Assembly (NCBI GenBank): GCA_018992685.1
Contig: JACVGT010000018.1
Coordinates: 160,001 to 224,000, forward strand
Origin: Theionarchaea archaeon
GTDB taxonomy: Archaea; Methanobacteriota_B; Thermococci; Methanofastidiosales; SZ-28-30
DNA: 64,000 bases
Direction: 5' to 3'
Shown here: in pieces, positions 15,301 through 50,097 of the stretch
Layout of the letters: each line of letters starts with the position of its first letter
Position numbering within the stretch: the first letter of the stretch is position 1
Program-made: the position numbers and the translations under genes
The notes under the pieces: generated by a model
The model's database searches: none
What the model was told of the DNA's origin: nothing
Seen by the model: only the letters and a program-made list of their open reading frames with translations

Positions 15301-15740
15301 ACTTCCTACCTATGCTCTCATTGTATATGAATCCTGTTTTTCGTTATTCAAGCAACTTTTCCAACCTTTTTCTGCAGAGATACGTATGTCACTTCATATC
15401 AATGGTAGAGCCAACTCTATCACAATACAGGCAAACTAAGCTCAGCATTTGAACGTGTCAGTTACATCATCAATTGCCTGAACATACTGTGATTTCACAC
15501 TTCCTTGTTCAAATGGAGTTGAAAGGTGAGAGACATCCATGTAAAATGAAGATTCCAAAATGCTGAAACAGAACCCTGGTAAGCTCTCATGGCGGCAAAA
15601 TGGCACATATTAGTGAGATCGAAAAGCCAGATGTCTACGAAAGGGCAACAGCCAGTATTGGCACACGACTGGTAGACAAGTCATGAAGGGTATCATTTAA
15701 ATTGTGGCGATCAATAGTCAAGCTGTTAGGAGGTCTAACT

Positions 15741-16934: not shown

Positions 16935-16944
16935 AGGTGATATC

Positions 16945-18774
16945 ATGAAAGGATTCCGCGGGAAGATCTTGGTGGTGGACTTGTCCTCAGAGACCATTAA
17001 GACTGAACTGGTGAATGAAGAGATTGCCAGGGCGTTTCTGGGTGGAGCTGGATATGCTGTTCGATACCTCTATGATCTTGTGGATGAGGGTACGGACCCT
17101 TTAGGGCCAGAAAATCCTCTTTTTTTCATGACGGGACCTCTCACCGGGACTCTTGCTCCTTCTGCAGGCCGGTGGGTGGTATGTGCCAAGTCGCCACTCA
17201 GCCAGATCTGGGGAGAATCCAACTGTGGAGGCTTTTTCGGAGCTGAGCTAAAATTCGCCGGCTTTGATGGCATTCTGGTGAAGGGAACTTCTGAACATCC
17301 TGTATACGTGTGGATTACCAACGATGAACAAGACATAATGGATGCATCTGATCTGTGGGGGAACGGTATCTATGAAACCCACTCCAGACTGAAACAAGCA
17401 GTTTCGGACAAACTAGCACGAGTAGCCTGTATCGGTCCTGCAGGGGAAAACCTGGTAAAATATGCCAGCATTGGATCTGAAGAACGAGCAGCGGGAAGGA
17501 CAGGGATGGGAGCTGTCATGGGCAGCAAGAACCTGAAGGCTGTGGTGGTCAGGGGAAAACTACGGGACATTGACCTCGCACATCCCGACCAGTATAATCA
17601 GCTGGCAAAGACCATCAAGAATGAGATCATGGATATCTTTACTGCCCAGATGATGGGTGAACTGGGAACGTCAGGTGGTGTTGATATGTACAATTATAGA
17701 GGACAGCTTCCGGTCAAGTACTGGACGAGAGGTGAATTTGACGGTGCCTATGATATCTCGGGTTCCACCATGAAAGAGACAATTCTGGTACGTCCCCGTC
17801 ACTGTTTTGCCTGCCCCATTGGGTGTGGGCGAGTGGTCAACGTGAAAGAAGGGAGATACAAGACCCCTGGTGAGGTGGAAGGGCCTGAGTACGAAACGGT
17901 GGCGGGATTTGGATCCCAACTCCTCAACAATAACCTAGAAGCCATAGCCAAGGCTAACTATCTGTGCAATGACTACGGGATTGACACCATCTCCTCAAGT
18001 GTTATTATTTCTTTTGTATACTACCTCGTGGAAAAAGGAATTGTTTCTGCTGGAGACCTTGATGGAATCAACCCCCGGTTTGGAGACTTTGATCCTGCAC
18101 TGGAGTTCATTTCCAGGATTGCCCAGCGAAAAGGAATTGGGAATCTGCTTGCTGAAGGTGCTCAAGCTGTTGGCAGCCACTTTGGCGTTTCCCGTGACGA
18201 GATTGCCACCGTTGACGGCATGGAGGTAACATATCATGATCTGCGCTCCACGTATGGGATGGCCATTGCGTATGCTACAGGGCCCCGAGGACCTGGGCAT
18301 AACTCCTGTGATATGTACATGACCTCCACGGGGCAGCCCTTTCCAGAACTGGACATTCCTGTTCCAGATCACTATGATGAGAGTTGTGTCATGACTGATG
18401 CCTGCGCCCGCCTCCAGGATTATCGAGCTTTCTACAGTACTGTGATCTTCTGCATGTTCTGCAACCCCGCTCCCTCTTCCATTGGTGACCTCATTTCGTT
18501 GGCCACTGGGTGGGACATTGGAATACCGGAGATCAAGATCATCGGAGAGCGAGTCTTCACCATGAAGAGGCTGTTCAACATCAAGATGGGCCTCTCTGGA
18601 GACTGGGACACCATTCCTGAGATATTGACAGCGCCGGTGTCTGATGGAGGGTCAGCAGGGAGGAGCCCCGACTGGAAAAAGATGCTCAGACAGTATTATG
18701 AATTTCGAAAATGGGACCCGAAGACGGGTATTCCTTCAAAAGAAAAACTGGAAGAACTGGGAATCCATGTGTAG
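16945..18774 (+). CDS. aor: Tungsten aldehyde:ferredoxin oxidoreductase family protein
   Basis: AAGRTGMGAVMGSKNLKA, CFACPIGC, EGPEYET and DYGIDTIS. Confidence 0.93.
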   Translation: MKGFRGKILVVDLSSETIKTELVNEEIARAFLGGAGYAVRYLYDLVDEGTDPLGPENPLFFMTGPLTGTLAPSAGRWVVCAKSPLSQIWGESNCGGFFGAELKFAGFDGILVKGTSEHPVYVWITNDEQDIMDASDLWGNGIYETHSRLKQAVSDKLARVACIGPAGENLVKYASIGSEERAAGRTGMGAVMGSKNLKAVVVRGKLRDIDLAHPDQYNQLAKTIKNEIMDIFTAQMMGELGTSGGVDMYNYRGQLPVKYWTRGEFDGAYDISGSTMKETILVRPRHCFACPIGCGRVVNVKEGRYKTPGEVEGPEYETVAGFGSQLLNNNLEAIAKANYLCNDYGIDTISSSVIISFVYYLVEKGIVSAGDLDGINPRFGDFDPALEFISRIAQRKGIGNLLAEGAQAVGSHFGVSRDEIATVDGMEVTYHDLRSTYGMAIAYATGPRGPGHNSCDMYMTSTGQPFPELDIPVPDHYDESCVMTDACARLQDYRAFYSTVIFCMFCNPAPSSIGDLISLATGWDIGIPEIKIIGERVFTMKRLFNIKMGLSGDWDTIPEILTAPVSDGGSAGRSPDWKKMLRQYYEFRKWDPKTGIPSKEKLEELGIHV

Positions 18775-18876
18775 ATTGATCAGATTTTTCTTCTCTTTTC
18801 CTCTTTCACCCAACCGTATGACAGTGCCAGCACGCTATTCATGCCACCATAAGTATGATACTGAAGCAATGAACAG

Positions 18877-19581
18877 CTAGCGCCTGCGAGCCAGCTCCTC
18901 CATCAGCTCCATCTGAATCTCCTGGATCTGCAGGAGTCTCTGCCACTGATTTGCCAGCAGATGATCAATTTTTTCATGAAGATTCCGTATCTCCACTTCT
19001 GCTTTGAGGTTGACAACATAATCATGCTCTGACCGCAAACGATCCTTTGATTCCTGACGATTCTGACTCATCATGATAACAGGAGCCTGTATTGCAGCAA
19101 GACATGACAGCACAAGGTTCAGGAGAATGAAGGGATAAGGATCAAAATGTTTAGAAAGGAGCACCACACTGTTTATGCCGATCCATACAACCAGTATGCT
19201 AAAGAACATCATGATAAAAAGCCAGCTCCCAGCAAATTTGGCAAGTGCGTCTGAAAGGCGTTCTCCGAAGGTGAGGTTCTGTTGAAACTCAACATTAATA
19301 TCTCTGGATATGAGCTCCTGTTCTCTGAGACTTTTCATTACCTGTTCCTCCAATGAGGAGAGTTCGCCTTTCTCAGTTTCCAGGATCTCCCTCACATACT
19401 CTGATCTGAAGTGGTTGAGGTCAGAAAGACAGATAAATCCAGAGGGGGACCACTGAGGGTACTTCTTCTGGATAGTCTCAACCAGGGGGTCTCGAATGAG
19501 ATCTCCCGGGATGACCTCATCCGGATCTTTATGTTCTCCACAAATCCCACATACAATAGTCTTCTTATCTGCATCTGTCAT
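18877..19581 (-). CDS. DUF1003-family membrane protein
   Basis: TFGERLSD..AKFAGSW and FDPYPFILLNLVLSCLAAIQAPVIMMSQNRQ. Confidence 0.88.
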   Translation of the reverse strand: MTDADKKTIVCGICGEHKDPDEVIPGDLIRDPLVETIQKKYPQWSPSGFICLSDLNHFRSEYVREILETEKGELSSLEEQVMKSLREQELISRDINVEFQQNLTFGERLSDALAKFAGSWLFIMMFFSILVVWIGINSVVLLSKHFDPYPFILLNLVLSCLAAIQAPVIMMSQNRQESKDRLRSEHDYVVNLKAEVEIRNLHEKIDHLLANQWQRLLQIQEIQMELMEELARRR

Positions 19582-19847
19582 ATTACCACCTCTGAAGGTT
19601 CCTGAATTTATACTCCCGGAGTCTAATAAATTCTTTCATCGCCATCCTCAATCCTCAAAACGGCAGGGCCTGCAGGAAGTTCCTCCTGTTGGGAACCCGT
19701 GGGCGTGAGGAAGACCACGTTGCAGGCGATGACAAAGATGTCTCCTGAATACTCAGGCTACAAGAATGATGGTACCTCGCTTTGATATCGAGGCCATCCT
19801 GCAGATTTTTAAGGTGTGACAGCAATACATAGGAGAATGGTGATGTC

Positions 19848-21587
19848 ATGACAGAGAAAAGACCAAAGTTGACTGGTGGCGACGTTCTTGTGCAGTGTTT
19901 GGTCCAGGAGGGAGCCAAGAAGGTTTTCGGTGTCCCTGGAGATCAATTATACCCTTTCTTGGATGCCATATACAAATCAGATGAAATCGATTTTGTTACC
20001 ACCCGGCATGAACAGGCTGCAGCCCACGCAGCAGATGCCTGGGCACGGGTAACGGGTAACCCAGGAGTCTGTGTGGGAACTGTGGGACCAGGTGCTGCAG
20101 ACCTGGTTCCTGGCGTGTATGTCGCATATGCAGATTCCATTCCTATGATTGTAATAACAGCTCAAAATCAATCCTGGAAGATACATCCTGATCATGGTTC
20201 TATGCAAGCTCTGGATCAGCAGTCCCTGTTTCATCCTATTACCAAGTGGAGAGTGCTAGTAAATCACTGGAAGAGAATTCCTTCTTTGGTCCAGTGGGCG
20301 TACCGGAATGCTGTGTCAGGCCGGCCGGGTCCTGTGCTCCTAGACTTTCCTGCAGATGTCTTGTTTGATGCGGGGTATCCTGAAGAGCTGGAGAGCCCTG
20401 TATTACCCCCTCACCAGTACAGAGCTGTAGCCTCCCCCGTGGGGAATCCTGAGGCCATACGAACGGCTGCACAGTTGCTGGTTGAAGCCAAGGCCCCTCT
20501 TATTCATGCAGGAGGAGGTGTCCTGCAATCTGAAGCATCAGATGAAATCGTTGGGCTCGCAGAACATTTGCAGGCCCCTGTCACCACGTCGCTGATGGCC
20601 AGAGGAGTCATACCTGAAGACCACGAGCTCTGTCTGCTTCCTGCAGGGTACGGTTCTCTGGCAGCACAGGTTGGAGCAGATATTGTCCTTGCCGTAGGAG
20701 GCAGGTTCGGTGATCTGGACTTTTGGGGAAAGCCTCCTGGATGGGGCGAACCTGATGAGCAGAGAGTGATCCAGATAGACATTGATCCCACCATGCACGC
20801 ATTGAACCGTCGCGTGGATCTGGCAATTACAGGAGATGCAAAGGTTACCCTCCGGCAGCTGCTGGAAGAAGTCAAGAAAATTCACCCAGAGAAGAAAATC
20901 CCCAGAGAAGACCTCGAGGATGATAGGGCAGCTCAGGAGGCGTGGCTGAATGATTTCAAGGAATTGAGTAACTCCAGCCAGGTACCTATCCACCCTTTGA
21001 CTGTGATCCAGAAAGTACGCGATTTCTTTCCCCGTTCAGCCATCAGTATCGTTGATGGAGGAAATACTGCAATCTGGGCCGTGTATCTCAATCGGATTTA
21101 TGAGCCCCGTACGTTCTTGTGGGCATCTGATTCTGGCCACCTGGGTACAGGTATTGGTTATGCTATCGGTGCCCAACTAGCCCGACCTGATAGGAGCGTG
21201 TACTGCATTACCAGTGACGGCTCAGTCATGTTTAACATACAGGAACTTGAAACTGCGGCGCGCCTGTGTGTTCCAATAGTCATTATCGTGGTTAATGATC
21301 AAGCCTACGGAATGATCAAAGCAGGCCAGAAGGCAGTGTGTGACTCCCGATTCATTGGAGTGGACTTCACTGATGCGAGATATGACAGGATTGCAGAAGC
21401 TATGGGATGCTATGGGGAGCGTATTCAGTCTCCTGATGAAGTCACCCCTGCACTGCAGAGAGCTGTAGATTCGGGCAAACCTGCCTTGCTGGATGTGGTT
21501 GTGGACAGTGATGTCAATTTAGAACCTCCTGATTTCAAGACCGTGGCTGCGCTCTGGTTGGAAGGCTGTGAAATGCCCGATGAGTAA
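19848..21587 (+). CDS. ThDP-dependent enzyme of the acetolactate synthase / 2-hydroxyacyl-CoA lyase superfamily
   Basis: RHEQAAAHAAD, GPG and SGRPGPV; ThDP motif variant SDGS...NDQAYG. Confidence 0.85.
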   Translation: MTEKRPKLTGGDVLVQCLVQEGAKKVFGVPGDQLYPFLDAIYKSDEIDFVTTRHEQAAAHAADAWARVTGNPGVCVGTVGPGAADLVPGVYVAYADSIPMIVITAQNQSWKIHPDHGSMQALDQQSLFHPITKWRVLVNHWKRIPSLVQWAYRNAVSGRPGPVLLDFPADVLFDAGYPEELESPVLPPHQYRAVASPVGNPEAIRTAAQLLVEAKAPLIHAGGGVLQSEASDEIVGLAEHLQAPVTTSLMARGVIPEDHELCLLPAGYGSLAAQVGADIVLAVGGRFGDLDFWGKPPGWGEPDEQRVIQIDIDPTMHALNRRVDLAITGDAKVTLRQLLEEVKKIHPEKKIPREDLEDDRAAQEAWLNDFKELSNSSQVPIHPLTVIQKVRDFFPRSAISIVDGGNTAIWAVYLNRIYEPRTFLWASDSGHLGTGIGYAIGAQLARPDRSVYCITSDGSVMFNIQELETAARLCVPIVIIVVNDQAYGMIKAGQKAVCDSRFIGVDFTDARYDRIAEAMGCYGERIQSPDEVTPALQRAVDSGKPALLDVVVDSDVNLEPPDFKTVAALWLEGCEMPDE

Positions 21588-21598
21588 CTGGTGATGAG

Positions 21599-22615
21599 GT
21601 GAAGGCTGCAGTATTTTACGGAGAAAAGGATGTCCGCATTGAAGACGTGGATGATCCTTCTCCAGGACCGGGTGACGTCCTGCTCAGTCCCTTGTATTGT
21701 GGAATCTGTGGTACAGATGTTGATGCCTGGAAAACTGGCATGTATACACCTGGAGTGATACTGGGTCACGAATTCTCTGCCAGAGTTGTTGAATGCGGAC
21801 CTGGAGTGGACGGATGGAGCCCCGGGGACAACGTGGTAGTCAACTCGATTATCCCCTGTGGGACCTGTTCTTTCTGCGTACAAGGGAGGTACAGCCTGTG
21901 TGACAATGTGAAAATGCCGGGTATTACTGTCAATGGTGGTCTTGCTGAGCTTGTCTCCATCCCTGCTGATTCATTATTGCGGATGCCAAATTCTGTTACT
22001 GCAAGAGAAGCTGCCCTTACAGAACCACTGGCTGTTGTCCTGCACGGGTTCAATTTAATCAAAGGGGACTGGGGACTGGGCAACAAAGCACTGGTGACAG
22101 GTGCAGGCACCCTGGGATTACTTGCACTGCAGGTGGCTCACGCTGCAGGTGCTTCTCTTGTGGCAGTTTCTGAACCCAATTCCTCCAGGCGGGACACTGC
22201 AGTCGCTCTGGGTGCTGACATGGTAATTGATCCTGAAGTATCTAATGTGTGGGTGGAATTTGGAGAAAAGGCAGGTCACCTTCCCGATCTAGTGGTGGAA
22301 TGTTCAGGATCGGCCCTGGCTGCAACAGAAACGTTCTCTCTGGCCAAGAAAGGAGGGGTGGTCCTTGTCTTGGGAATATCTGAAGAGCCAGTAGAAGCAG
22401 ATTTCATGGCAGCAGTCCTTAACGAATTGACCTTTCACTTCAGTTACTGTGGATATTCAGAGTTTTCCGCCGCACTGGCTATGATTGAAAGGAAGATAGT
22501 CCGCGTAGGTGACTTAATCACTGAAATACCCCTGGACGATACCGTTGAGAAGGGATTTCAGAGGCTGGCAGATTCCCACTCTGACGTAGTAAAACTCTTG
22601 GTAAAAATATCATGA
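21599..22615 (+). CDS. Zn-dependent medium-chain alcohol/diol dehydrogenase
   Basis: CGICGTD, GHEF, CGTCSFC...C and GAGTLG. Confidence 0.92.
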   Translation: MKAAVFYGEKDVRIEDVDDPSPGPGDVLLSPLYCGICGTDVDAWKTGMYTPGVILGHEFSARVVECGPGVDGWSPGDNVVVNSIIPCGTCSFCVQGRYSLCDNVKMPGITVNGGLAELVSIPADSLLRMPNSVTAREAALTEPLAVVLHGFNLIKGDWGLGNKALVTGAGTLGLLALQVAHAAGASLVAVSEPNSSRRDTAVALGADMVIDPEVSNVWVEFGEKAGHLPDLVVECSGSALAATETFSLAKKGGVVLVLGISEEPVEADFMAAVLNELTFHFSYCGYSEFSAALAMIERKIVRVGDLITEIPLDDTVEKGFQRLADSHSDVVKLLVKIS

Positions 22616-23040
22616 ATGGAGGTGATTGTATTCTCTTAGGTTGTGAAGAGTATCTCGAAGAAGCTAAAAAGCGGGTGAATGAGGATTCTCAGTATGAAGA
22701 GCTAGCCAAGGAAATTAATGACTCCTATACCTTGGTAATGGAGGCAGAACCCACCAAGGGGGTTCCCAATTCCATGGTTCTGGGATTTCAGATCTCCAAT
22801 GGAAAAATGATTGATATCTGGCGCGGTGACAGGAAAACTGATTTCATCCTTTCAGCCAAATACGGAGACTTTGTGGACATCTTGATGGGAAACCTCAATG
22901 TCACCAAGGCGTTTGTCACCCGGAAACTGAAGATAAAAGGGTCTCTAGCCCGCATGCTGAAAACTTCAAAAGCCACAGAACGGTTTGTTGAAGTGCTGAA
23001 GGCTATTCCTACAGAATTTGAGGGAGACTACTGCAAATAA
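22612..23040 (+). CDS. SCP2 sterol/lipid-carrier domain protein
   Basis: FVDILMGNLNVTKAFVTRKLKIKGSL SCP2 signature. Confidence 0.85.
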   Translation: MNGGDCILLGCEEYLEEAKKRVNEDSQYEELAKEINDSYTLVMEAEPTKGVPNSMVLGFQISNGKMIDIWRGDRKTDFILSAKYGDFVDILMGNLNVTKAFVTRKLKIKGSLARMLKTSKATERFVEVLKAIPTEFEGDYCK

Positions 23041-23058
23041 GAAATTAGAAAAAAAGAA

Positions 23059-23463
23059 TTAGTAAAACTGCGTATCGATCAACGTGATAGTGCGAACAAG
23101 CTCCTGGGCTGCTTTGACCGCCCGCATGACTTTGGCCATTTCACCTTTGAGCTTGAATTTGCCAGTCATCAATCCCTGGATGGGATCCAATTTCCCTTCC
23201 ACTAACTTGACATAGTTTGAGTAAGGACCTTCGTATACGAAGGCACTCTCTACCTCATCAGGAGACTGGAGGACTCTTCCATCGCGGGCCTCACCATGCC
23301 AGAGATCAATCCACAGAAATATGTCATGATCCAGCGGACCATCTGCTCTGATGATGAAGATGAAGTCACCTTCCCATGTGCTGGCAGCTTCACCATAAGC
23401 TGGGTTTTTGTTCAGCCTATCCATATATTCCTGACACCATTCTTCTGTTCCAAAAAGGGGCAT
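23059..23463 (-). CDS. SCP2 sterol/lipid-carrier domain protein
   Basis: FGTEEWC... and LVEGKLDPIQGLMTGKFKLKGEM. Confidence 0.88.
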   Translation of the reverse strand: MPLFGTEEWCQEYMDRLNKNPAYGEAASTWEGDFIFIIRADGPLDHDIFLWIDLWHGEARDGRVLQSPDEVESAFVYEGPYSNYVKLVEGKLDPIQGLMTGKFKLKGEMAKVMRAVKAAQELVRTITLIDTQFY

Positions 23464-23883
23464 TGAGTTCAACTCCTCTTTACGTATGTTGAGGTTGTTT
23501 CGATCTTCGTCTAATAAATGTTTGCAGTAATGACTCGCATCTTGGTCCCGCAGCGCCAGATTTATTTGATAGCCATCATGGTTTCTGATTCTGAGCTACA
23601 TTGATGATGTTCGAAGTTTCCCCTCAAGGCGGGCGTCCTTTCGAGACCAGACAACTCCAGACTGGCAAAAGGAAGGCAGATCTCTGATTCTCCTTTTCTA
23701 TTCGGCTTATATTTTGTGTTCTTTCTTTGATATATTCTCATATTCTCATGAAACGTTCAAGCTTTCCCGTGAATTCCTTCTTATGACGGTATTAGAAACA
23801 TCCTGATCATCTCACTATCGACGATACCATTAAATATATCATGTGTCCAAAGGAAGCCAGAAAAGAACCTGAAGAGGTTGCAC

Positions 23884-24252
23884 ATGAAAACTCACCACTT
23901 CACCTGTATCAAGTGTCCTTTAAGCTGCCAAATAGAACTCATTGAAGACAATGGCACTGTCCTGGAAATAAGAGGATGTACATGCAATCAAGGAGAACAA
24001 TACGCTCTTGACGAGTTCAGTAACCCTCTACGAATTGTCACCACTACTGTTCGCGTCACTGAGGGAATACTTCCTGTTGTCCCTGTTCGAAGCCAGGCCC
24101 CCCTGCCAAAATCATTGATCGCTGACTGTGTTAGTGTGTTGAATACTACGGAGGTTGAAGCACCGGTGACGTGTGGGCAGATCGTCTGCAGCAACATCCT
24201 GGACACAGGTATTGATGTAGTAGCGTCCCGAGATCTAGAAAGGAGGCATTAG
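23884..24252 (+). CDS. DUF1667 Cys-rich small subunit of the GlpA-like dehydrogenase module
   Basis: TCIKCPLSC...GCTC..G..Y...P.RIVTTTV pattern. Confidence 0.85.
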   Translation: MKTHHFTCIKCPLSCQIELIEDNGTVLEIRGCTCNQGEQYALDEFSNPLRIVTTTVRVTEGILPVVPVRSQAPLPKSLIADCVSVLNTTEVEAPVTCGQIVCSNILDTGIDVVASRDLERRH

Positions 24253-24253
24253 T

Positions 24254-25813
24254 ATGTATGTTCTGGTTATTGATGCAGGGACCACAGGTATCAGGTCCAT
24301 TATTTTCGATAAAGAGACCACCGTCGTCTCACAAGCATATGAAGAAATCCCCCAGATTTACCCTGAGCCGGGCTGGTGTGAGCAAGATCCTGTTGTCATC
24401 TGGGAAAAATGCGTTAGTGTCCTCAAGCAGTCCTTGGAAAAGGCCAAACTATCCTCAACCGATATTGTGGCCATAGGAATGACCAATCAGAGATCCACCA
24501 GTTTGCTCTGGGACAAGAAAACAGGTGTTCCCATCCATAATGCTGTTACCTGGCAGGACACCAGAACAGCTCACTTATGTAAAGAAAAAGACAGAGCCTT
24601 CAAGATAAGGGCACTTCGAGGTGCAGGTTCTGCAGTGAAGCTTCTTGGTCAGATAATCAAGCCAATCAAGAGGAGCCGCACCGGAAAATTGCTGATGACG
24701 GTGTCGAACCTTTCCTTCAGCCCTGCTACTTCACTAGCCCATATTGCATGGGTTCTCAACAATGTAAATGGAGCACGAGAAAAAGCAGAAAAGGGGGATC
24801 TCCTTGCGGGTACCATTGATACCTGGTTAATCTGGAACCTTACAAGAGGCAGTGTTCACGCCACAGACTATAGCAATGCCAGTGCCACCAATATGTTTGA
24901 TACCTTCAGCCTGAAGTGGAGCACCCTGTTTCTGGGGCTATTTGACATTCCTCTTTCATTACTGCCTGAAGTCAGAGAATCCAGTGGAGATTTCGGCAAA
25001 ACCCATCCCGACCTGTTTGGCACTCCAATACCCATCACAGGTGTGTGTGCAGACCAGCAGGCTGCCCTCTTCGGGGAGACCTGTTTCAACGCAGGTGACG
25101 TGAAATGCACACACGGGACGGGCACCTTCATTGATATGAATGTGGGAGAAGAACCGGTCACCTCTCCTCACAAGCTTGTTCCCCTCATTGCCTGGTGTCT
25201 GAATAAGAAGGTGACCTACATGCTGGAAGGATATCTCGGGGCAACAGGTTCTGCTGTCCAGTGGCTGTGTGATGGACTGCAAATCGTCAACGCTCCCTCA
25301 GAAACGGATGATATCGCCTGTTCCATAGGAGACACAGGAGGAGTCTACCTTGTACCCGCCTTCCAGGGGCTGACCTCTCCATACTGGGACCCTCTGGCCA
25401 GGGGAGTTGTGGTAGGACTGACCCGGGGAACCAGAAAGGAACACGTGGTCAGAGCAACTCTGGAGGCCATTGCATACTGCTGCAGAGATATCATGGTAGC
25501 TATGGAAGAGGATTCTGGAGTGACCATCAAGACCATAAAGGCGGATGGAAATGCTTCCACCAACAATTTCATAATGCAATTCATGGCGGATCTCCTGGAT
25601 GTGGAGATCGAGAGACCTGCAATGCTGGAGTCTACAGCACTGGGAGCAGCATTCCTTGCTGGATTGTCTGTAGCCTACTGGAAATCACAGGAAGAGCTCA
25701 AGAAATACCGGAAAATAGATTCAAGATTCCAACCTGCAATGGACCACGCAGAAAGAGAGAAACTGTATAAAAAATGGAAAAAAGCAGTGAAAAGATCATT
25801 TGACTGGGCTTAG
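24254..25813 (+). CDS. FGGY glycerol-kinase family protein with a GK5-like insertion
   Basis: IDAGTTG, TNQRST, WQDTR, GTIDTWL, DQQAALFG and KCTHGTGTF; a basic amphipathic stretch follows WQDxR. Confidence 0.9.
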   Translation: MYVLVIDAGTTGIRSIIFDKETTVVSQAYEEIPQIYPEPGWCEQDPVVIWEKCVSVLKQSLEKAKLSSTDIVAIGMTNQRSTSLLWDKKTGVPIHNAVTWQDTRTAHLCKEKDRAFKIRALRGAGSAVKLLGQIIKPIKRSRTGKLLMTVSNLSFSPATSLAHIAWVLNNVNGAREKAEKGDLLAGTIDTWLIWNLTRGSVHATDYSNASATNMFDTFSLKWSTLFLGLFDIPLSLLPEVRESSGDFGKTHPDLFGTPIPITGVCADQQAALFGETCFNAGDVKCTHGTGTFIDMNVGEEPVTSPHKLVPLIAWCLNKKVTYMLEGYLGATGSAVQWLCDGLQIVNAPSETDDIACSIGDTGGVYLVPAFQGLTSPYWDPLARGVVVGLTRGTRKEHVVRATLEAIAYCCRDIMVAMEEDSGVTIKTIKADGNASTNNFIMQFMADLLDVEIERPAMLESTALGAAFLAGLSVAYWKSQEELKKYRKIDSRFQPAMDHAEREKLYKKWKKAVKRSFDWA

Positions 25814-25815
25814 AA

Positions 25816-26799
25816 CTATTCTGAATCAGGGGAGAAGGCATAGTGGACAGTTATCGTGCCATCCTCTCCAATAAGTGCAGTGATTCCGCTGTGCCTGGTT
25901 TCATTCCCCATGAATGCATCATACCAGAGAACCTGCCAATTCTCTTCTCCGACCTGAGTGACTACCACAGCCGGGAGCCGCGCCTTGGCCAGGAATGCCT
26001 GTATTTTTTCATCCTTTCTGGAATAGGAGACTGCTTTCTCAGGAGTGTCCACTGGAGGATCAGAAACAGTGTCCAATAGGGGCAGAGTCTCAACAGTCCG
26101 CGTTTCCAGGATGCTCTGGGAAAGAGTGTTCACGGTGTATATGTAGTATATCCGGGCTTTCTCATCCTCTCTCTGGACCACTACTGACCATATGTGGGGT
26201 AAAGCAGTGGGGAGACCATAGCCCTCTTCTCCTGCCTCTTTTTGGACAGTGGCGAGGGCCACTCCTTTTTCGTAGTACCGTATTCCAAAAAAAGTGGCTA
26301 CAAGACAGAGAGATACCACCGCGAGGACCTTCACGGTCTTTCTATCCTTGCGATAGTGACCAACTACAGCAGCCAAAAGGAAAATGGCGAAGAAGACTGG
26401 ATCAAAGAAACTGGTGATATCGAACACAGTTCTCGAATCTGAGAATGGCCATCGTATAGCCATGCTCCACGGAGTCAGTAAATCAAGGAAAAGGTGACCA
26501 AAAGCTCCGATCATGAATAGACAGAGCATCAAGAGGACCTTGTTCTTCTGAAAGTTGGACAGTTGGACAGTCATCACGAGATACAGCAGTCCCAGAACAA
26601 GAGCCCCAACAATAACTCCCACAATCGAGTGAGTGACTCCTCTGTGGTACTGGAATACAGCATCTATGCCCCCCAGAATGGAGACACCGTCAAAGTCAGG
26701 GAGCATGCATGCCGCTACAAAGAGCACCCAGGATTTCTTATCCAGGTTCAGCCCTCTGCCAATCACGATTCCTACCAGCCCATGAGATATGAGGTCCAT
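25816..26799 (-). CDS. Membrane-bound metal-dependent hydrolase (YdjM/DUF457-like)
   Basis: MDLISH...PDFD...HRGVTHS...HLFLDLLT..; several TM helices. Confidence 0.85.
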   Translation of the reverse strand: MDLISHGLVGIVIGRGLNLDKKSWVLFVAACMLPDFDGVSILGGIDAVFQYHRGVTHSIVGVIVGALVLGLLYLVMTVQLSNFQKNKVLLMLCLFMIGAFGHLFLDLLTPWSMAIRWPFSDSRTVFDITSFFDPVFFAIFLLAAVVGHYRKDRKTVKVLAVVSLCLVATFFGIRYYEKGVALATVQKEAGEEGYGLPTALPHIWSVVVQREDEKARIYYIYTVNTLSQSILETRTVETLPLLDTVSDPPVDTPEKAVSYSRKDEKIQAFLAKARLPAVVVTQVGEENWQVLWYDAFMGNETRHSGITALIGEDGTITVHYAFSPDSE

Positions 26800-30107: not shown

Positions 30108-31310
30108 CTATTGATTCATGCTTTCAAAAACGATTTCTGACAGATCACGCGATTCAGAATTCCTGGTCCTCTTAAAAGCAATTTTGCACGCAGGGCAGGC
30201 AGTGACCACAGTGTCAGCAAGCTCACACAACTCACTGTCCCTAGCTCGCAGCAGTGTGACAGAAAGTTCAGGATTGGTCATGGCCAGGAGCCCACCTATT
30301 CCGCAGCATCGAGTGTGCTCCCTGGTCAGAGGAGGCTCCCTCACGGATACGCCCGGGATAGCTTCCAAGACCCTTCTTGGCTGTTCAATGATATGCAATT
30401 TCCTGGCCAGGACACAGGGATCATGATACACCAGGTCTTTGTTGAGCTCTTTCAACTGAATCTTCCCTTGTTCAATCAATTCCAGAAAATACTCAGACGT
30501 GTGCATCACGTCAGCTTTCACGGGGAATCCTGCTTCAGCATATACGTCCTTGAAGGTATACACACACTCAGGACAGCTACAGATCATCTTCTTACAGCCA
30601 CTTTTCTCAATGATATCTGCATTACGGGCTGCGAATTCCTTGAAATCATTTTCAAACCCCAAGAGATTCAAAGGAGCCCCGCAGCACCATTCCTCGGGTA
30701 ACGTAGTCACAGCAATTCCTACTTTCTCGAGAATCTTCATGGTGGTCTGGGCAATGACTCGTTCCTTGTTCAGCACCGTGCACCCAGCAACGTACAGTAT
30801 ATCTGCTTCTCGTGGCTCCAGCCCCAGGGAAGTCCTGGAATTCTGATAGATGGTGTGGCTGTTGACAATCTGATCTCTAATGCCCATCAGCATCTCTGGA
30901 GCCAGATTCCTGTCCACCAGATCTCTTCTCACCCCTATTAAGAGATCATCCACAGAAAAATCAAAAGGACACCACTGCTGGCATGCAGAACATGCAGCAC
31001 ATGCATACATCAAATCCACGGCATCTTGAGATGAAACCCGGCCCATCTCCAGTAAATAAGCTATCCGTGCCCTGCCTGCGGGTGCATATGTTTCAGACTT
31101 GGCTGCCTGCAACACGGGGCAATCAAATCGGCACATATTAGGACAGAGTGCACACTTCAAAATGTCATCCACGTGTGCCTTCGTTTTGCCATCTGGTAGA
31201 TACTTCTTCTTTGCTGTGAGAAACCTGACCACAACTTCCTTTTGCGTAGAAAGGGCCAACCTTGAGATAGCTTTTGCAATCCAGAAATACTTTTTGAATT
31301 CTTCCAGCAT
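30108..31310 (-). CDS. CCG-domain Fe-S oxidoreductase (GlpC/HdrD/GlcF-like)
   Basis: CALCPNMCRFDCP and CAACSACQQWCP, plus two CCG domains (WCCG, YHDPC..CCG..TACPAC). Confidence 0.9.
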   Translation of the reverse strand: MLEEFKKYFWIAKAISRLALSTQKEVVVRFLTAKKKYLPDGKTKAHVDDILKCALCPNMCRFDCPVLQAAKSETYAPAGRARIAYLLEMGRVSSQDAVDLMYACAACSACQQWCPFDFSVDDLLIGVRRDLVDRNLAPEMLMGIRDQIVNSHTIYQNSRTSLGLEPREADILYVAGCTVLNKERVIAQTTMKILEKVGIAVTTLPEEWCCGAPLNLLGFENDFKEFAARNADIIEKSGCKKMICSCPECVYTFKDVYAEAGFPVKADVMHTSEYFLELIEQGKIQLKELNKDLVYHDPCVLARKLHIIEQPRRVLEAIPGVSVREPPLTREHTRCCGIGGLLAMTNPELSVTLLRARDSELCELADTVVTACPACKIAFKRTRNSESRDLSEIVFESMNQ

Positions 31311-31311
31311 G

Positions 31312-32790
31312 TTATAACCCCATTTTTCCCGGATTCATTACATACTCAGGATCCAATGCTTTCTTTATCGTTCTCAGAACTTCAAGAGATGATCCCAGTT
31401 CCTGTTGTACCCACGGGCTCCGCAAGATTCCAATGCCGTGGTGATGACTTATGGAACCTCCAGCGTGCAAGCACGCTTTCATGGCAGCATCCCATACAGT
31501 CTGGTAGAAATCTGTAGGACTCCCAGTCATGGGTGTTCCCCCGAAAGTGAAATAGAAACACACACCCTGGGGATAGAAGTGTGAGGCGTGGGCAGATGCG
31601 ATAATCACCCCGTCAATTGATTTCATTGCAGAAATCATGGATTGATATAACTCCATGGATTTATCCCACATGACAGAGACTTCAATGGTGTCAAAAACAA
31701 CATCTCGGGGGGTGAATTCTGAGATTTCCTTCACATTGAAGCGGGTCTCTAACCAGTGGGCTGCGGGTCCCTCACCTACTGAGATTCCGCCGTGCTCTGT
31801 GCATACTGCATGAGAGACGGATCCTTCAAGGTCTACCAGCTCTCTGTCTCCTTCCAGAATCAGAATCAAAACACACTTTCCTCTTGTCTTCTTTGTACGG
31901 TAAAAATGCCTTTCTGTCTCCACCTGATCATATAATCGGGCCACAGCAGGAAAGATGCCTCTTCTCAAGATGATTCGTATGGATTCTAATGCCTCTTCCA
32001 GATGGGAAAAAACATAGGATTGCAATACCCTCTTTTCAGGGTAGGGCCAGATCTTCAGGGTTGCTTCTGTAATGATTCCGAGGGTCCCTTCTGCTCCCAG
32101 CAGGAGCATGTCAATCCGGGGGCCTGTGGAGGATTTGGGAACTGGTTTTGACCTGATAATTGTCCCCTGAGGGAAAACGGCTTCCAAGGAAATGAGTATG
32201 TCATCAATCTTGCCGTATTTAGTGGAGAATTGACCTGCCGCCCTGCAAGCAAGCCACCCACCTAGCGTGGAGCAGTACAATGACTGTGGTATGTGTCCCA
32301 GAGTGTAGCCCTTCTGATTGAGGAAGCGTTCCAAATTCATGCCGTTGATCCCTGGTTGGACAGTTATAGTCAAATTAGTATCGTCAAGGGCTAGAACTGC
32401 ATTCATTCTCTTCATGTCGACGATAATTCCTCCCTGAACAGGGATAGCTGCTCCTAGTACTCCTGATCCTTCCCCAAAAGGTGTAACAGCCAGGTTTTCT
32501 TCATTAGCCATCCTCATGATGCGAGAAATGTGATCTGCTGTTTCCGGCCACACCACGAATTCGGGAAGGGCAGGGACTTTCCCCTCTAACATCCATCTCA
32601 GTGCAATGGGCCAGTAGTCTCTAGAATAGGACAGCCGATCCAGCTCCCTGTGAGACACATTTCGCTTACCCACTATCTTCTGTAGGTTCACCAGGATCTG
32701 TTCTTTCTGTTCAGCAGACAACGGTGTCTGTGGGTAGACTATTTCGTAGTCCGAGCCATGAGTGTGTCCTGTAGTATTTTCTGAAGACAT
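31312..32790 (-). CDS. Alkyl-dihydroxyacetonephosphate synthase-like FAD oxidoreductase (VAO family)
   Basis: LGHIPQSLYCSTLGGWLACRAAGQFSTKYGKI, GAEGTLGIIT, RLYD, HASHFYPQGVCFYF and GGSISHHHGIG. Confidence 0.8.
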   Translation of the reverse strand: MSSENTTGHTHGSDYEIVYPQTPLSAEQKEQILVNLQKIVGKRNVSHRELDRLSYSRDYWPIALRWMLEGKVPALPEFVVWPETADHISRIMRMANEENLAVTPFGEGSGVLGAAIPVQGGIIVDMKRMNAVLALDDTNLTITVQPGINGMNLERFLNQKGYTLGHIPQSLYCSTLGGWLACRAAGQFSTKYGKIDDILISLEAVFPQGTIIRSKPVPKSSTGPRIDMLLLGAEGTLGIITEATLKIWPYPEKRVLQSYVFSHLEEALESIRIILRRGIFPAVARLYDQVETERHFYRTKKTRGKCVLILILEGDRELVDLEGSVSHAVCTEHGGISVGEGPAAHWLETRFNVKEISEFTPRDVVFDTIEVSVMWDKSMELYQSMISAMKSIDGVIIASAHASHFYPQGVCFYFTFGGTPMTGSPTDFYQTVWDAAMKACLHAGGSISHHHGIGILRSPWVQQELGSSLEVLRTIKKALDPEYVMNPGKMGL

Positions 32791-33125
32791 GATATTCACT
32801 TCCTCAGTACCCGTATCAATAAAAGGTATTTAAATTCTCCTGTAGATTTTTTCTTTGCCTGAGTACATCGTTTAATTACTTTCTCTATTCCTCGTTTTTC
32901 TTCCATACTTGTGGTTCCTCAATAAGACTCCTGACACACCCTGAGGTTGTCCGGGATGGAATCCTTTCAGGTTCTGAGAATCGAAAGTCCCTTGTGCCGG
33001 GTCTGATAGAGAGCAGTGTGAACACGCATTCTGCACGGATTTCATCATTTCTCCTTAGCGCAGGCAGGGAAATCCTTATATGGATAAGACGCCCAAGAAT
33101 AAGAAATGTAAAAGAGGTGAGAACC

Positions 33126-43945: not shown

Positions 43946-44002
43946 CTCGCATCACTGAGTCCTTTTTCCGGTCGCATGATACGCGCAACTATATGCGCTT
44001 GT

Positions 44003-44033
44003 TATTTCGAAACTTTTAAAAACTTTCGAAATA
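44003..44033. promoter_or_regulatory. Palindromic operator enclosing a TATA-like box between divergent genes
   Basis: TATTTCGAAA-CTTTTAAAAAC-TTTCGAAATA: perfect 10-bp inverted repeat with 11-bp spacer. Confidence 0.7.
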
Positions 44034-44044
44034 TAATTCTTCTC

Positions 44045-45448
44045 ATGGCCATGACACATCGTGTAGGAGAAATCAACTCTTTTCGACGGGCTGTAACACC
44101 GCAGGAACGAAGATTCGTTATGGCTCCCACATCTCACATCTCGCTGGGAGTCAAAGTAAAGGGGAACTTATCAAAAGAGTCATTGCGAGATGCCGTAGAC
44201 AAGATGCTGGTCACCTATCCTCTATTCGGTGTACGAATTCTATGGGATTATGAGATAACACAGTCTACAACGGAAGATGCTGCTGAGGTACCTGTGAAGG
44301 TATACAGAAGAGAATCAGAAACCAGTTGGCTGGAGGCATTGAACAAGGAACACTCAATCCCCATCAAACCCTCCAGTGGCCCTCTTACTCGCATCATTCT
44401 GGTGAAGGGCCCAGATGTATCAGAACTATTCATCTTCTGCCATCATTCCATTTGTGATGGGAGATCTCTGGAGTTTGCTCTTCGAGAGATACTCCTTCAT
44501 CTGAGAGATCCTGGCAGAGTTCCTCATCTACTTCCTGAGGTACCGCCACAGACTCCTGAGATATTTCCGGAAGGTGTTTCCAGGAGCAGACTCAAATTAT
44601 GGTTCATCGAACGACTCAACAAGAAGTGGCTCAAAGAGAAGGTACTGTTTGATGAAGAGGATCTGTTGAATGTATGGGAGTCATTTTGGAAGAACTCTAG
44701 CTATGGTGTTGAACTTGTCACCCTTGATGCGCGTGAAACACAGAACCTCGTGGAGGCATGTAGAGCTAATAGTGTAACAGTCAATTCAGCGTTGCTTGTT
44801 GCATTTGTTAGGGCACGATGGGAAGCTTTGGGACCCTACAAGGACACGGTGAAAATCGGTACTGCAGTTGATACTCGTGACCGACTTCGCATTACAGTTG
44901 GAGATGCAGTTGGTCTCTATGCAGGTGGAATATCTCTTGCATTCAAGTACAGAAGCGATCGTCCTTTCTGGGAGAATGTCCAAGAATACCATAAGGAGGT
45001 CAAGAGACATCTGAAGGACAACAATGTGTTTGGTCCCATATACGACCAAATCGCATTAGACCCGACGTTGCTCGATGCCTTGCTCTTTGCCATGATTGGA
45101 GATCAGGTGGAACCTCATCAGAGTCGATACAAGAAAATATCGGAGTTCGCCAAGCGTCAAAAAGGTCTCGTGGCAGAATATCTCGACAAGTTTTCAAGCA
45201 ACATACCGGATGTCATGAGCACCAACCTTGGTGTATTGAATCTACCTGATGAGATTCATGGGTTGGAGATAGAAGAAGCATTTTTCACACCCTCCTCTGG
45301 CTTGAAGATGGAAATCGTCCTGGGTGTTGCTACAGCTGGAGGTTGTCTTACTGTATCTTTGAACTATCATGATGCATATGTCGACGGTGAAAAGATCAGG
45401 CGCGTTCGTGATAGGGCTGAAGAGATATTGAAGACCATACTCCCTTAG
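44045..45448 (+). CDS. Standalone condensation-domain / alcohol O-acyltransferase (CAT fold)
   Basis: HHSICDG (HHxxxDG), CRANSVTVNSAL, AVDTRDRL and STNLG; ATG about 25 nt after the TATA suggests a leaderless mRNA. Confidence 0.85.
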   Translation: MAMTHRVGEINSFRRAVTPQERRFVMAPTSHISLGVKVKGNLSKESLRDAVDKMLVTYPLFGVRILWDYEITQSTTEDAAEVPVKVYRRESETSWLEALNKEHSIPIKPSSGPLTRIILVKGPDVSELFIFCHHSICDGRSLEFALREILLHLRDPGRVPHLLPEVPPQTPEIFPEGVSRSRLKLWFIERLNKKWLKEKVLFDEEDLLNVWESFWKNSSYGVELVTLDARETQNLVEACRANSVTVNSALLVAFVRARWEALGPYKDTVKIGTAVDTRDRLRITVGDAVGLYAGGISLAFKYRSDRPFWENVQEYHKEVKRHLKDNNVFGPIYDQIALDPTLLDALLFAMIGDQVEPHQSRYKKISEFAKRQKGLVAEYLDKFSSNIPDVMSTNLGVLNLPDEIHGLEIEEAFFTPSSGLKMEIVLGVATAGGCLTVSLNYHDAYVDGEKIRRVRDRAEEILKTILP

Positions 45449-45670: not shown

Positions 45671-46627
45671 GTGGACGCCATCACCTGTGAGCATGTGGAT
45701 AGAATTTTCGAAAGCAAAAATAGAATGGTGAAAGCACTCAATGATGTGACAATTACTGTGAAGAAGGGAGAACTCTTTGGGCTACTCGGTCCAAATGGGG
45801 CTGGGAAGACTACCCTCATCAAAATTTTGACTACACTACTCCTCCCTACATCAGGAGAAGCCCACGTTTATGGCTATGATGTCACCAAAGATGAAACCAA
45901 GATCAGACCCATTATCAACATGGTGTCAGGTGGGGAATTTTCTGGCTACGGACTACTAACCGTCCATGAAAATCTCTGGATGTTCTCTCAATTCTACGGA
46001 ATACCTGGAAAAGAAGCCAACAAGAGAATCGAAACCCTCATGGAACGGTTAGGAATAGTACATATGGGGGACAGAAAAATTAGAACATTATCCACTGGGG
46101 AAAGGCAGAAAGTAAGCATCATTAGAGCATTCATGACAGATCCACGGGTAGTTTTCCTGGATGAACCCACGTTGGGACTGGATGTGGAAACTGCCCGGCT
46201 GATCCGACGGTTCATTCAAGAATGGCTGGCACAAGACTCTCAGAGAACCGTCCTTCTGACTACTCACTATATGATGGAAGCAGATGAACTCTGCAGCAGG
46301 ATTGCCATCATTAATGAAGGGAAGATTGTGGCTCTGGACACTCCTGGAAACCTAAAGAACATGGTAAAAAAGGAAATCTCCCTGAACATAGAGGTCTTCC
46401 CAGAAATTAGAGTGGACTGGCTCAATACCCTAGAAGGTGTCATGGGATTCAATTCCAGGGATGCTGGAGGGAATCTCAATCTGAGGGTTGTGGTTGATAA
46501 CGATGCTACTGTGGGGGAAGTTCTCGCAGGTATTAGCCAGCGTGGAGGAAAGATCAGCTATTTAAACAAAGAAGAACCTACTCTCGAAGACGTCTTCCTC
46601 AAATTAACAGGGAGAGGACTGGAATGA
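45671..46627 (+). CDS. ABC-2 type exporter ATP-binding subunit
   Basis: GPNGAGKT, LSTGE, FLDEPT and TTHYM. Confidence 0.95.
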   Translation: MDAITCEHVDRIFESKNRMVKALNDVTITVKKGELFGLLGPNGAGKTTLIKILTTLLLPTSGEAHVYGYDVTKDETKIRPIINMVSGGEFSGYGLLTVHENLWMFSQFYGIPGKEANKRIETLMERLGIVHMGDRKIRTLSTGERQKVSIIRAFMTDPRVVFLDEPTLGLDVETARLIRRFIQEWLAQDSQRTVLLTTHYMMEADELCSRIAIINEGKIVALDTPGNLKNMVKKEISLNIEVFPEIRVDWLNTLEGVMGFNSRDAGGNLNLRVVVDNDATVGEVLAGISQRGGKISYLNKEEPTLEDVFLKLTGRGLE

Positions 46628-49402: not shown

Positions 49403-49413
49403 TTTAATCACCT

Positions 49414-49830
49414 CTAAGAAATGATTGCCAGTGAATCCCCTGTATTCACAGCCTGCCCTTCTTTCACCAGAATTCTCTTTAAGGTGCCTGTAAGTGGGGA
49501 CGATATCTGGTTTTCCATCTTCATGGCCTCCAGCGTGAACAGAAGGTCGCCTGCTGAAACCGTCTTCCCTTCCACAGCATGGATTTTGAGAATGGTTCCC
49601 GGCATAGGGGAAGGCACTGATCCTGGAGACATGGCTCTGGATGTGGGAATAGAGGGCGATGAAACAACGACGGGTCCCTGAGCGTGCAGGGTTTTCTCTT
49701 CCCTGACCCTCTCTTCCTGGATTGAGACTTCATATGGGACTCCGTCCACGATTACTGAATAGGAGGGTCCTTCTCCTTCTATTTCCACTTCATAGGGCTT
49801 GCCTTCAATTTCGACTGTGTATTTGGTCAT
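49414..49830 (-). CDS. mmdC: Biotin carboxyl carrier (gamma) subunit
   Basis: SPMPG and LEAMKMEN biotinylation motif. Confidence 0.93.
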
Positions 49831-50086: not shown

Positions 50087-50097
50087 GGACCATCCAC

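Follow-up and report, generated by a model that had tools for sequence, protein, structure and literature searches.

What does the active site of alkyldihydroxyacetonephosphate synthase (AGPS) do when the flavoprotein that carries it is coupled to an iron-sulfur protein? AGPS is the textbook flavoenzyme without net redox chemistry, and most knowledge of its ether-bond step comes from eukaryotes and myxobacteria. The question is raised by a locus in a 64,000-nucleotide stretch of DNA, referred to as the window (positions 160,001 to 224,000 of contig JACVGT010000018.1, assembly GCA_018992685.1), from an uncultured sediment archaeon of the Theionarchaea whose genome (G000) is 91% complete. On the reverse strand of the window a gene coding for an AGPS-like flavoprotein, named AGPSL here, is followed by a gene coding for an iron-sulfur protein of the CCG type. 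The pair is an uncharacterised variant of the architecture that joins a flavoprotein of the vanillyl-alcohol oxidase (VAO) family to a CCG iron-sulfur protein, built on an AGPS-type active site, and it most probably is a two-subunit flavin/iron-sulfur enzyme of glycerol-phosphate-type metabolism rather than an ether-lipid synthase.

The AGPS-like flavoprotein and its iron-sulfur partner

AGPSL (P0001) is an AGPS-like VAO-family flavoprotein encoded by nucleotides 31312..32790 of the reverse strand, with 492 amino acids when translation is started at the ATG at 32790. The longest open reading frame (ORF) spans 31312-32799 and begins with a GTG at 32799; the ATG is likely the true start because the identical database protein P0006 and most homologues also have 492 amino acids, and it agrees with the end coordinate, 32790, given in a preliminary description of the locus. 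Upstream of this ATG are a GAGG, at about 12 nucleotides, and a TATA-like box recognised by eye, TTTAAATA (32827..32834, reverse strand), at 37-44 nucleotides, the latter being a candidate promoter of the AGPSL-CCG pair. Pfam identifies the domains FAD_binding_4 and FAD-oxidase_C. The four motifs claimed in the preliminary description (GHxPQS, RLYD, HxSHxYxxGxCxYF, and SHHHGIG) were all located in the translation, where, counting from the GTG start, they correspond to GHIPQS at residues 168-173, ARLYD at 287-291, HASHFYPQGVCFYF at 404-417, and SHHHGIG at 451-457.

A phmmer comparison of AGPSL with all PDB sequences detected 59 distinct sequences at E <= 1e-3. The E values obtained with AGPS from Dictyostelium (2uuu, 227.8 bits, E 2e-66) and guinea pig (4bby, 223.3 bits, E 4.7e-65) indicate homology and not a chance match, and lower scores were found for D-lactate dehydrogenase (LDHD; 8jdc, 137.1 bits, E 6.6e-39), glycolate oxidase (9qgz, 127.2 bits), LctD (7qh2_C, 123.4 bits), and D-2-hydroxyglutarate dehydrogenase (6lpn, 88.8 bits). 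When an AlphaFold2 model of AGPSL (mean pLDDT 81.8, pTM 0.80, alignment of 20 sequences) was used as Foldseek query, AGPS chains came first (4bby_A, E 1.5e-37, TMq 0.83) and the first non-AGPS chain was LDHD 8jdt at rank 37 (E 4e-31, TMq 0.78). The two other VAO-type paralogs of the genome, neither of which has GEHG, were taken as negative controls. The best matches of the paralog on contig 10 were of the p-cresol methylhydroxylase (PCMH)/vanillyl-alcohol-oxidase types, AGPS chains being found in 0 of its 39 matches at E <= 1e-10, and the paralog on contig 6 matched LDHD and LctD best, with just 51 bits for AGPS. Within NCBIfam the top named match of AGPSL was glcD, with 199.9 bits against a cut-off of 567.9. 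The phmmer scores, the Foldseek order and the two controls from the same genome thus place AGPSL in the AGPS branch and not with GlcD/LdhD, as the preliminary description had proposed, and the contrast that it drew with the GEHGxG motif is real at least for mouse LDHD, in which GEHGIG occupies the alignment columns of the AGPSL HHHGIG.

The partner (P0002), encoded by nucleotides 30108..31310 of the reverse strand, includes a Fer4_8 and two CCG domains identified by Pfam, and its gene does start one nucleotide after the AGPSL stop codon, the junction being TAA-C-ATG. In an alignment of 26 sequences (A2) the first [4Fe-4S] motif (C53/C56/C60/C64) is conserved; the second (C104/C110/C114) is conserved as well, with a variable C107 and a partial loss in Asgard sequences, and both CCG cysteine sets are complete (C177/C209/C210/C246/C249 and C299/C335/C336/C372/C375). 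The partner scores under every NCBIfam cut-off (TfrB, LdhH, GlpC, GlcF), the best match being TfrB with 133 bits against 385, and the two GlpC models give 99.2 against 278 (NF008369) and 78 against 279.9 (TIGR03379). A survey of species-representative genomes, with neighbours detected by tblastn, yielded 287 confirmed AGPSL relatives, of which the best 80 loci were kept. A CCG gene lies directly downstream of AGPSL in 79 of these 80 loci, the exception (L058) being on a contig that stops 311 nucleotides past AGPSL, and the gap between both genes is 10 nucleotides or less in 63 of the 64 loci in which a longest-ORF caller found both ORFs. The library protein P0129 (894 amino acids, 46% identical) is a natural AGPSL-Fer4_8-CCG fusion.

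A prediction of the complex of AGPSL and its partner reached an ipSAE of 0.93 in all three runs, the best of three controls scoring 0.00; the runs share at least 89% of their contacts, and the partner has a pLDDT of at least 89. The ipSAE mark is reached by 116 of 157 solved complexes and by 2 of 215 mismatched pairs, counts that hold only roughly for a prediction that, as was the case here, used alignments of our own construction. This limit weighs against the prediction, as does the likeness of partner residues 172-379 to the solved 1042-amino-acid 'iron-sulfur-binding reductase' 9ojn, a fused FAD-oxidase/Fe-S protein, which may account for part of the high score. The modelled interface brings partner residues 51-63, with the first cluster motif, into contact with AGPSL residues 108-112, 128-133, 152-155, and 173-176, which form the loops that bind flavin adenine dinucleotide (FAD). 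The interface also includes residues 6-37 and 71-100 of the partner and 49-73 and 354-367 of AGPSL, the latter segment containing Ser360, and the N-terminal helix of the partner is placed against the AGPSL cap domain. Together with the adjacency in 79 of 80 loci and the fusion P0129, the predicted complex bears out the dedicated iron-sulfur partner of the preliminary description and strongly supports the view that the pair is one two-subunit flavin/iron-sulfur enzyme, composed of an AGPS-clade flavoprotein and a GlcF/GlpC/HdrD-type subunit. The further proposal of a net-redox variant stands in a weaker form: with the first cluster motif of the partner predicted to face the loops that bind FAD, electron exchange by the flavin is the economical reading, and the enzyme could be either net-redox or redox-poised.

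This two-subunit build, a FAD_binding_4/FAD-oxidase_C protein with a protein including two [4Fe-4S] and two CCG motifs, is also that of the GlcDEF and D-lactate dehydrogenase systems, and the electron path predicted from the model, from the flavin edge to the first cluster, would be that of GlcDEF-type systems. The AGPSL pair differs from them in that AGPSL belongs to the AGPS branch, HHHG replaces GEHG, and the NCBIfam scores are far under the cut-offs.

The gene set around the pair

Downstream of the partner gene, after a 154-nucleotide spacer with the TATA-like sequence TTTAAAAT, the reverse strand of the window codes for a GlpA-like flavoprotein related to glycerol 3-phosphate (G3P) dehydrogenases of the GlpTk type (P0003, 28196..29953). 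It includes an N-terminal BON domain (residues 5-65), a DAO domain (94-458), and a C-terminal Fer2_BFD domain (504-557), which is of the [2Fe-2S] kind. In the homologous N-terminal extension at locus L090, no BON match reached E <= 1e-4. The gene for a NADH-oxidase-like protein (NOX-like, P0004, 26943..28199, reverse strand; Pfam Pyr_redox_2) overlaps the GlpA-like gene by 4 nucleotides and is followed by a gene coding for a YdjM-family membrane hydrolase (25816..26799, reverse strand; Pfam YdjM, 35 hydrophobic 19-residue windows). The hydrolase gene is present at L001 alone among the 80 loci, and its membership in the set is doubtful because the linkage is limited to the two Theionarchaea loci. 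Convergent with these genes are those for a DUF1667 protein of the third ('MOX') subunit type (23878..24252, forward strand; Pfam DUF1667, E 1.1e-29), which in related operons lies between the NOX-like gene and the kinase, and for a GlpK-related FGGY kinase (24254..25813, forward strand) whose glycerol pocket is altered and which has an insertion that is cationic and amphipathic. The GlpA-like, NOX-like, and DUF1667 proteins are homologous to the three subunits of Thermococcus GlpTk-NOX-MOX, described in the part of the source available to us as a three-subunit G3P dehydrogenase complex (PMC11962113, citing Koga 2019). Unlike the window set, that canonical trio has no BON extension, no link to AGPSL-CCG, and no altered kinase.

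AGPSL, CCG, BON-bearing GlpA-like, NOX-like, DUF1667, and FGGY kinase genes form a recurrent set of six. Within the phylum of the window, AGPSL was detected at E <= 1e-80 in 20 of 133 genomes, G000 included; 16 of these are among 97 genomes from one family of the same class, largely complete genomes of 1.8-2.0 Mb. In five same-class loci that were fetched, the AGPSL, CCG, GlpA-like (587-598 amino acids), NOX-like, DUF1667, and kinase genes are packed together and follow one another in that order, DUF1667 being detected in four of the five. Four of five related complete genomes also carry a separate canonical set consisting of GlpK, GlpA (about 500 amino acids, with no N-terminal extension), NOX, and DUF1667, and therefore the AGPSL set should serve another substrate.

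Across the 80 loci the GlpA-like gene follows in 21, as does the NOX-like gene, all of them in Theionarchaea, Thermococci, Thermoplasmatota, or Bathyarchaeota records, and the FGGY kinase is found inside the fetched flank in 59. The gene order in Asgard genomes is AGPSL-CCG-kinase, with an alpha/beta hydrolase gene next in 32 of the 51 loci grouped as Asgard. A GlpA-like gene that is not adjacent was found elsewhere in all five Asgard genomes (41% identity, aligned from residue 93, without the BON region), beside NOX-like and DUF1667 genes in two of three fetched regions, and in both Thermoplasmatota genomes (49-50% identity over the full length). The idea that AGPSL-CCG replaces G3P dehydrogenase was rejected on these grounds. 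That AGPSL-CCG is the constant core of an altered-glycerol gene set is strongly supported.

The kinase appears to depart from GlpK in its glycerol pocket. In the kinase alignment, canonical kinases have NQRETT, DAYFSASK, GDQQAA, and YGTGxF; the window kinase has NQRSTS where the canonical sequence is NQRETT, lacks the DAYFS tyrosine loop, and has an insertion of about 30 amino acids. All aligned GlpK-like kinases linked to AGPSL, which comprise those from Thermoplasmatota, Bathyarchaeota, the second set of the Thermococci class, and the Asgard type with 41-43% identity, share QR[S/A][S/T], the lack of the tyrosine loop, and an insertion of about 30 residues, and of 15 non-Asgard kinases scanned for the motif none has QRET. 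On the mapping that we presume between these motifs and the residue numbers of GlpK, Glu84 is replaced by Ser, the Tyr135 loop is replaced, and the Arg, Asp, and Phe are kept, so that two of the five residues of the glycerol-contacting signature are changed. This signature is given as Arg83, Glu84, Tyr135, Asp245, and Phe270 in the accessible part of the source (PMC3245297). Residues 119-136, within the insertion, are the most amphipathic 18-residue window of the kinase (moment 0.68 against a mean of 0.24 with a standard deviation of 0.12), with a charge of +4.

Two SCP2 lipid-carrier-family genes adjoin the DUF1667-kinase pair (22612-23040, forward strand, and 23059-23472, reverse strand), and nucleotides 15702-23472 also include genes for a Zn-dependent alcohol dehydrogenase, a thiamine pyrophosphate enzyme, an aldehyde:ferredoxin oxidoreductase, and an Fe-dependent alcohol dehydrogenase. 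The products of these genes together could oxidise a released alcohol. The separate GlpA-NOX-DUF1667 trio of Asgard genome G001 has as neighbour the gene for a 581-amino-acid FAD-linked oxidase, 26% identical to AGPSL, which is followed, with a 4-nucleotide overlap, by an unassigned 426-amino-acid ORF (both at L087:10082-13104).

Active site, proposed function and alternatives

AGPS (EC 2.5.1.26; 2uuu, 4bby) is the nearest relative of AGPSL in both sequence and fold, and both share the VAO fold with an FAD-binding and a cap domain. The correspondence of R288 and Y416 of AGPSL to Arg419 and Tyr578 of AGPS is fixed because the mutant PDB chains R419H and Y578F (4bca, 4bc7) differ from the wild type exactly at those aligned columns, and H452-454 align with His615-617. 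These residues are invariant in all 77 archaeal clade sequences. The catalytic Arg (Arg419/Arg352), Tyr (Tyr578/Tyr508), and His loop (His615-617), a comparison that the preliminary description had called for, are consequently all kept. For the Dictyostelium enzyme, ADPS, the accessible part of a mutagenesis study reports R352, Y508, and R447 as important, R447 being essential, and describes a domain found only in ADPS that carries a gate-keeping helix (PMC3509576).

We tentatively favour, at somewhat below an even chance, a scheme in which the AGPSL set would break down a 1-O-substituted glycerol, using chemistry of the AGPS type and a flavin in electronic contact with iron-sulfur clusters. 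The substrate would be a glycerol with a substituent at O-1, such as a monoalkyl or monoacyl glycerol derived from detrital lipids. The kinase would phosphorylate its free primary hydroxyl at the membrane interface, and the BON-bearing dehydrogenase would oxidise C2 to give a 1-O-substituted dihydroxyacetone phosphate (DHAP), which is the ligand class of AGPS. AGPSL would then enolise this compound by means of Tyr416, form an adduct at N5 of the flavin, and expel the substituent, with water as the second substrate and DHAP as the released product. The iron-sulfur/CCG subunit would either maintain the oxidised state of the flavin against a strongly reducing cytoplasm or remove two electrons if the adduct collapsed oxidatively. 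A more specific version, in which the ether cleavage proposed in the preliminary description is an inference from gene context, has the set as an oxygen-independent pathway for the cleavage of glycerol ether lipids, in which monoalkylglycerol would be converted to alkyl-DHAP by an interfacial kinase and the BON-bearing dehydrogenase, and AGPSL, running 'backwards' with water and its flavin serviced by the HdrD-like iron-sulfur subunit, would yield DHAP and a fatty alcohol; this is possible but rather doubtful, and the same doubt attaches to Theionarchaea, Thermococci, Thermoplasmatota, Bathyarchaeota, and Asgard archaea as its hosts.

Several observations weigh against a lipid-like substrate. 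The Arg447 of the Dictyostelium enzyme (Arg515 in guinea pig) aligns with Ser360 of AGPSL, and a Ser is present in 76 of the 77 clade members. The aligned part begins only at residue 131 in 2uuu and at residues 170-181 in 4bby; AGPSL has just about 70 residues ahead of that point, and no counterpart of the N-terminal gating region was found in it by alignment to the two structures. A cap insertion of about 23 (Dictyostelium) to about 37 (guinea pig) residues after position 295 is also missing. The loss of the gating region, the cap insertion, and the Arg could mean that lipid handling has been lost. The preliminary description had mentioned neither the Ser in place of this Arg, nor the missing gating region, nor the six-gene set. 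No transmembrane-like or hydrophobic segment was found in AGPSL or its partner, and the non-Asgard operons, those of the Thermococci class included, are flanked by no conserved lipase, lipid carrier, or extra gene cluster. P0216 and P0191 fuse an AGPS-like domain, 38-39% identical by BLASTP, to a PfkB sugar kinase and a Cof-type HAD phosphatase, respectively. Finally, the window kinase passes the NCBIfam cut-offs for GlpK equivalogs, narrowly with TIGR01311 (594.1 against 590.35) and also with NF000756 (632.6 against 498), it is nearer by BLASTP to canonical kinases (46-47%) than to those of the second set (34-35%), and no second GlpK was found in the window genome. Since the kinase passes these cut-offs in a genome with no other GlpK, plain glycerol may be the substrate there.

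As to the electron acceptor, in the favoured scheme a thiol/disulfide at the CCG clusters would be more likely than a quinone. The membrane electron carrier of the preliminary description found no support: besides the lack of transmembrane-like segments, neither MqnA nor a cytochrome b of the HdrE/NarI type was found in the 91%-complete genome, and a MenA-like match was only sub-threshold. A quinone as electron sink was accordingly set aside as without support in this genome, which at 91% completeness does not prove its absence. NuoH-like genes are present. Besides the AGPSL partner, the genome codes for three or more CCG proteins, and one of these is encoded in a pair with a PCMH-like flavoprotein, which points to a repeated use of CCG subunits as acceptors by several VAO-type enzymes. 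This second pair (contig 10, 39536-42210; L083:3537-6211, reverse strand) consists of a PCMH/vanillyl-alcohol-oxidase-type flavoprotein of 499 amino acids, located at the contig end, and a 392-amino-acid CCG protein whose gene overlaps by 4 nucleotides and whose best named match is TfrB (209 bits).

Among the alternatives, a dehydrogenase acting on a small soluble phosphate ester (sn-G3P, sn-glycerol 1-phosphate, DHAP, or another polyol or ketose phosphate) is the main one, to be taken seriously if unlikely. Electrons would pass through the iron-sulfur clusters to a thiol/disulfide or other soluble acceptor, as a second redox step beside the GlpTk-type complex. All characterised enzymes that combine a VAO-type flavoprotein with a GlcF/GlpC-like protein are net dehydrogenases, and in the part of the text available Price et al. 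propose that a FAD-oxidase/Fer4/CCG fusion is a phosphoglycerate dehydrogenase (PMC5764234). The PfkB and HAD fusions of relatives, the kinase scores above the GlpK cut-offs, the missing gating region and lost Arg515, and the lack both of hydrophobic segments in either subunit and of conserved lipid genes in non-Asgard operons all fit such an enzyme. On the other hand, a G3P dehydrogenase homologue always co-occurs (adjacent in 21 of 80 loci and elsewhere in seven of seven tested genomes), and therefore AGPSL is not its replacement; moreover, a canonical glycerol set is found alongside in four of five related genomes, the kinase pocket is changed at two of five signature residues, and the full AGPS constellation for enolising a DHAP-type ketone is conserved. 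A 2-hydroxyacid dehydrogenase of the GlcD/LdhD type, oxidising D-lactate or glycolate and removing, for instance, D-lactate formed from DHAP via methylglyoxal, is improbable. Its flavoprotein-plus-CCG build is that of glycolate dehydrogenase and reportedly also of Desulfovibrio lactate dehydrogenases, and glcD is the best named NCBIfam match, but the 199.9 bits are far under the cut-off, AGPS scores about 90 bits above LDHD, a separate LDHD/LctD-like paralog exists in the genome, and the GEHG of LDHD, which holds a metal-binding Glu, is HHHG in AGPSL.

That the CCG protein could be a GlpC-like partner of the GlpA-like dehydrogenase, its coupling to AGPSL being incidental, is suggested by its gene lying between both flavoprotein genes and by its weak GlpC matches (99 bits with NF008369). 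This is very improbable. The CCG gene is beside AGPSL in 79 of 80 loci, and for about 50 of these, from Asgard genomes, there is no GlpA-like gene within 8 kb. Moreover, a CCG-AGPSL fusion exists, the canonical trio works with NOX and DUF1667 and no CCG protein, and in the window the 154-nucleotide spacer with its TATA-like box splits the CCG and GlpA-like genes. A genuine alkyl-DHAP synthase, making ether lipids from acyl-DHAP and a fatty alcohol, would agree with the conserved Arg419, Tyr578, and HHH and with the name 'alkyldihydroxyacetonephosphate synthase' that JGI gives to close homologues, yet we regard it as hardly credible. In addition to the Ser in place of Arg515 in 76 of 77 members and the missing gating region, AGPS has 584-658 amino acids against the 492 of AGPSL, includes the cap insertion that AGPSL lacks, is stand-alone and redox-neutral in contrast to AGPSL with its obligate iron-sulfur/CCG partner, and works beside FAR and GNPAT, whereas the context of AGPSL, a kinase and a dehydrogenase, is catabolic. 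No PF01553 glycerolipid acyltransferase, the source of acyl-DHAP, was detected in the genome at its 91% completeness, against 10 of 14 control genomes with such a protein; matches to PF07993, which bear on the presence of a fatty-acyl reductase, are generic. A plasmalogen pathway is not reported in Archaea in the accessible part of a PNAS 2026 study of plasmalogen origins (PMC13012113). On its sequence, then, AGPSL is not a standard AGPS.

The wider family and the rest of the window

When AGPSL was scored against 1.84 billion cluster representatives, 25111 matches were obtained at E <= 1e-3 and 1884, counted as 50%-identity clusters, at E <= 1e-30. Among the best 150 representatives plus AGPSL, the AGPS signature positions H169, P171, S173, R288, D291, R353, H404, H407, Y416, and H452-454 are kept in 144-149 of 151 sequences. 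The signature hence stands for a very large prokaryotic family and does not by itself indicate ether-lipid synthesis. Two classes differ at the loop 292-312. The short class includes AGPSL, the CCG fusion, the PfkB-kinase fusion P0216, and the HAD-phosphatase fusion P0191, and the other has an insertion of 50-110 residues at the loop and often a tandem second FAD-binding domain; two members of the long class that were checked were no closer to AGPS (190 and 216 bits) than AGPSL. In a FastTree tree of 153 rows, with the two paralogs from the same genome as outgroups, AGPSL groups with short-loop members that have Ser360, including the CCG fusion. The PfkB and HAD fusions hint, from their domain composition, that some branches of the family may act on small sugar or polyol phosphates.

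To our knowledge none of the 1884 clusters of the AGPSL-type family has been characterised, and no biochemical study of the archaeal family was found in the literature searched. The PNAS 2026 study of plasmalogen origins, in the portion available, kept only AGPS of 500-700 amino acids (PMC13012113), and a Black Sea survey, likewise from its accessible text, noted Agps matches in archaeal metagenome-assembled genomes as a surprise (PMC11868695). A comparable gene combination is described for the GliR regulon of Pseudomonas aeruginosa, where, in the part of the report available, the triad PA3026-PA3025-PA3024 is induced together with a phospholipase and a lipid kinase; deletion produced no phenotype, and no function was assigned to the triad (PMC8151288). 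From their descriptions there, the three genes can be likened to those for an AGPS-like FAD oxidoreductase, a G3P dehydrogenase homologue, and an FGGY kinase, the differences being that the host is an aerobe and that this part of the report mentions no CCG partner (PMC8151288).

Other features of the window stand apart from the AGPSL set. Nucleotides 43976-45448 of the forward strand code for a 490-amino-acid protein with Condensation and PapA_C domains, similar to wax-ester synthases/acyltransferases and unusual in an archaeon, and an ABC-2 exporter gene pair (45671-48251) adjoins this gene. Genes for a sodium-pumping decarboxylase of the methylmalonyl-CoA/oxaloacetate decarboxylase type (OAD_beta, biotin carrier, and carboxyltransferase) are found at 48290-51657 of the reverse strand. 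A cluster at 55774-59060 of the same strand codes for a DAO flavoprotein, a small BFD-like ORF, a ferredoxin with two [4Fe-4S] motifs, and a protein with Fer2_4 and Pyr_redox_2 domains; it resembles the heteromeric amino-acid/opine oxidoreductases of the proline-dehydrogenase type of Thermococcales and includes the only other GlpA-like match of the genome, a weak one. The first 4000 nucleotides, with a G+C content of 0.373 against about 0.48 elsewhere and a DDE transposase fragment at 2021-2635 (reverse strand), are probably mobile DNA.

In anaerobic archaea one clade with the AGPS signature is hard-wired to an iron-sulfur subunit of the HdrD/GlpC type and is accompanied by a glycerol kinase and a G3P dehydrogenase that are both altered, often next to ordinary glycerol genes. 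The annotation 'AGPS' in archaeal metagenome-assembled genomes should therefore be taken with caution as evidence for ether-lipid synthesis of the bacterial type. If the substrate were a small phosphate ester, the pair would represent a new type of dehydrogenase at the glycerol-phosphate level. If it were an ether or ester glycerolipid, the set would be the first oxygen-independent route of ether cleavage and would explain the use of detrital lipids by abundant sediment archaea; as an ether-cleaving system, it would be the anaerobic equivalent of alkylglycerol monooxygenase and would supply a step that is missing from sedimentary lipid turnover. The family is widespread and, given the homologues in complete genomes of the same class, probably accessible in isolates.

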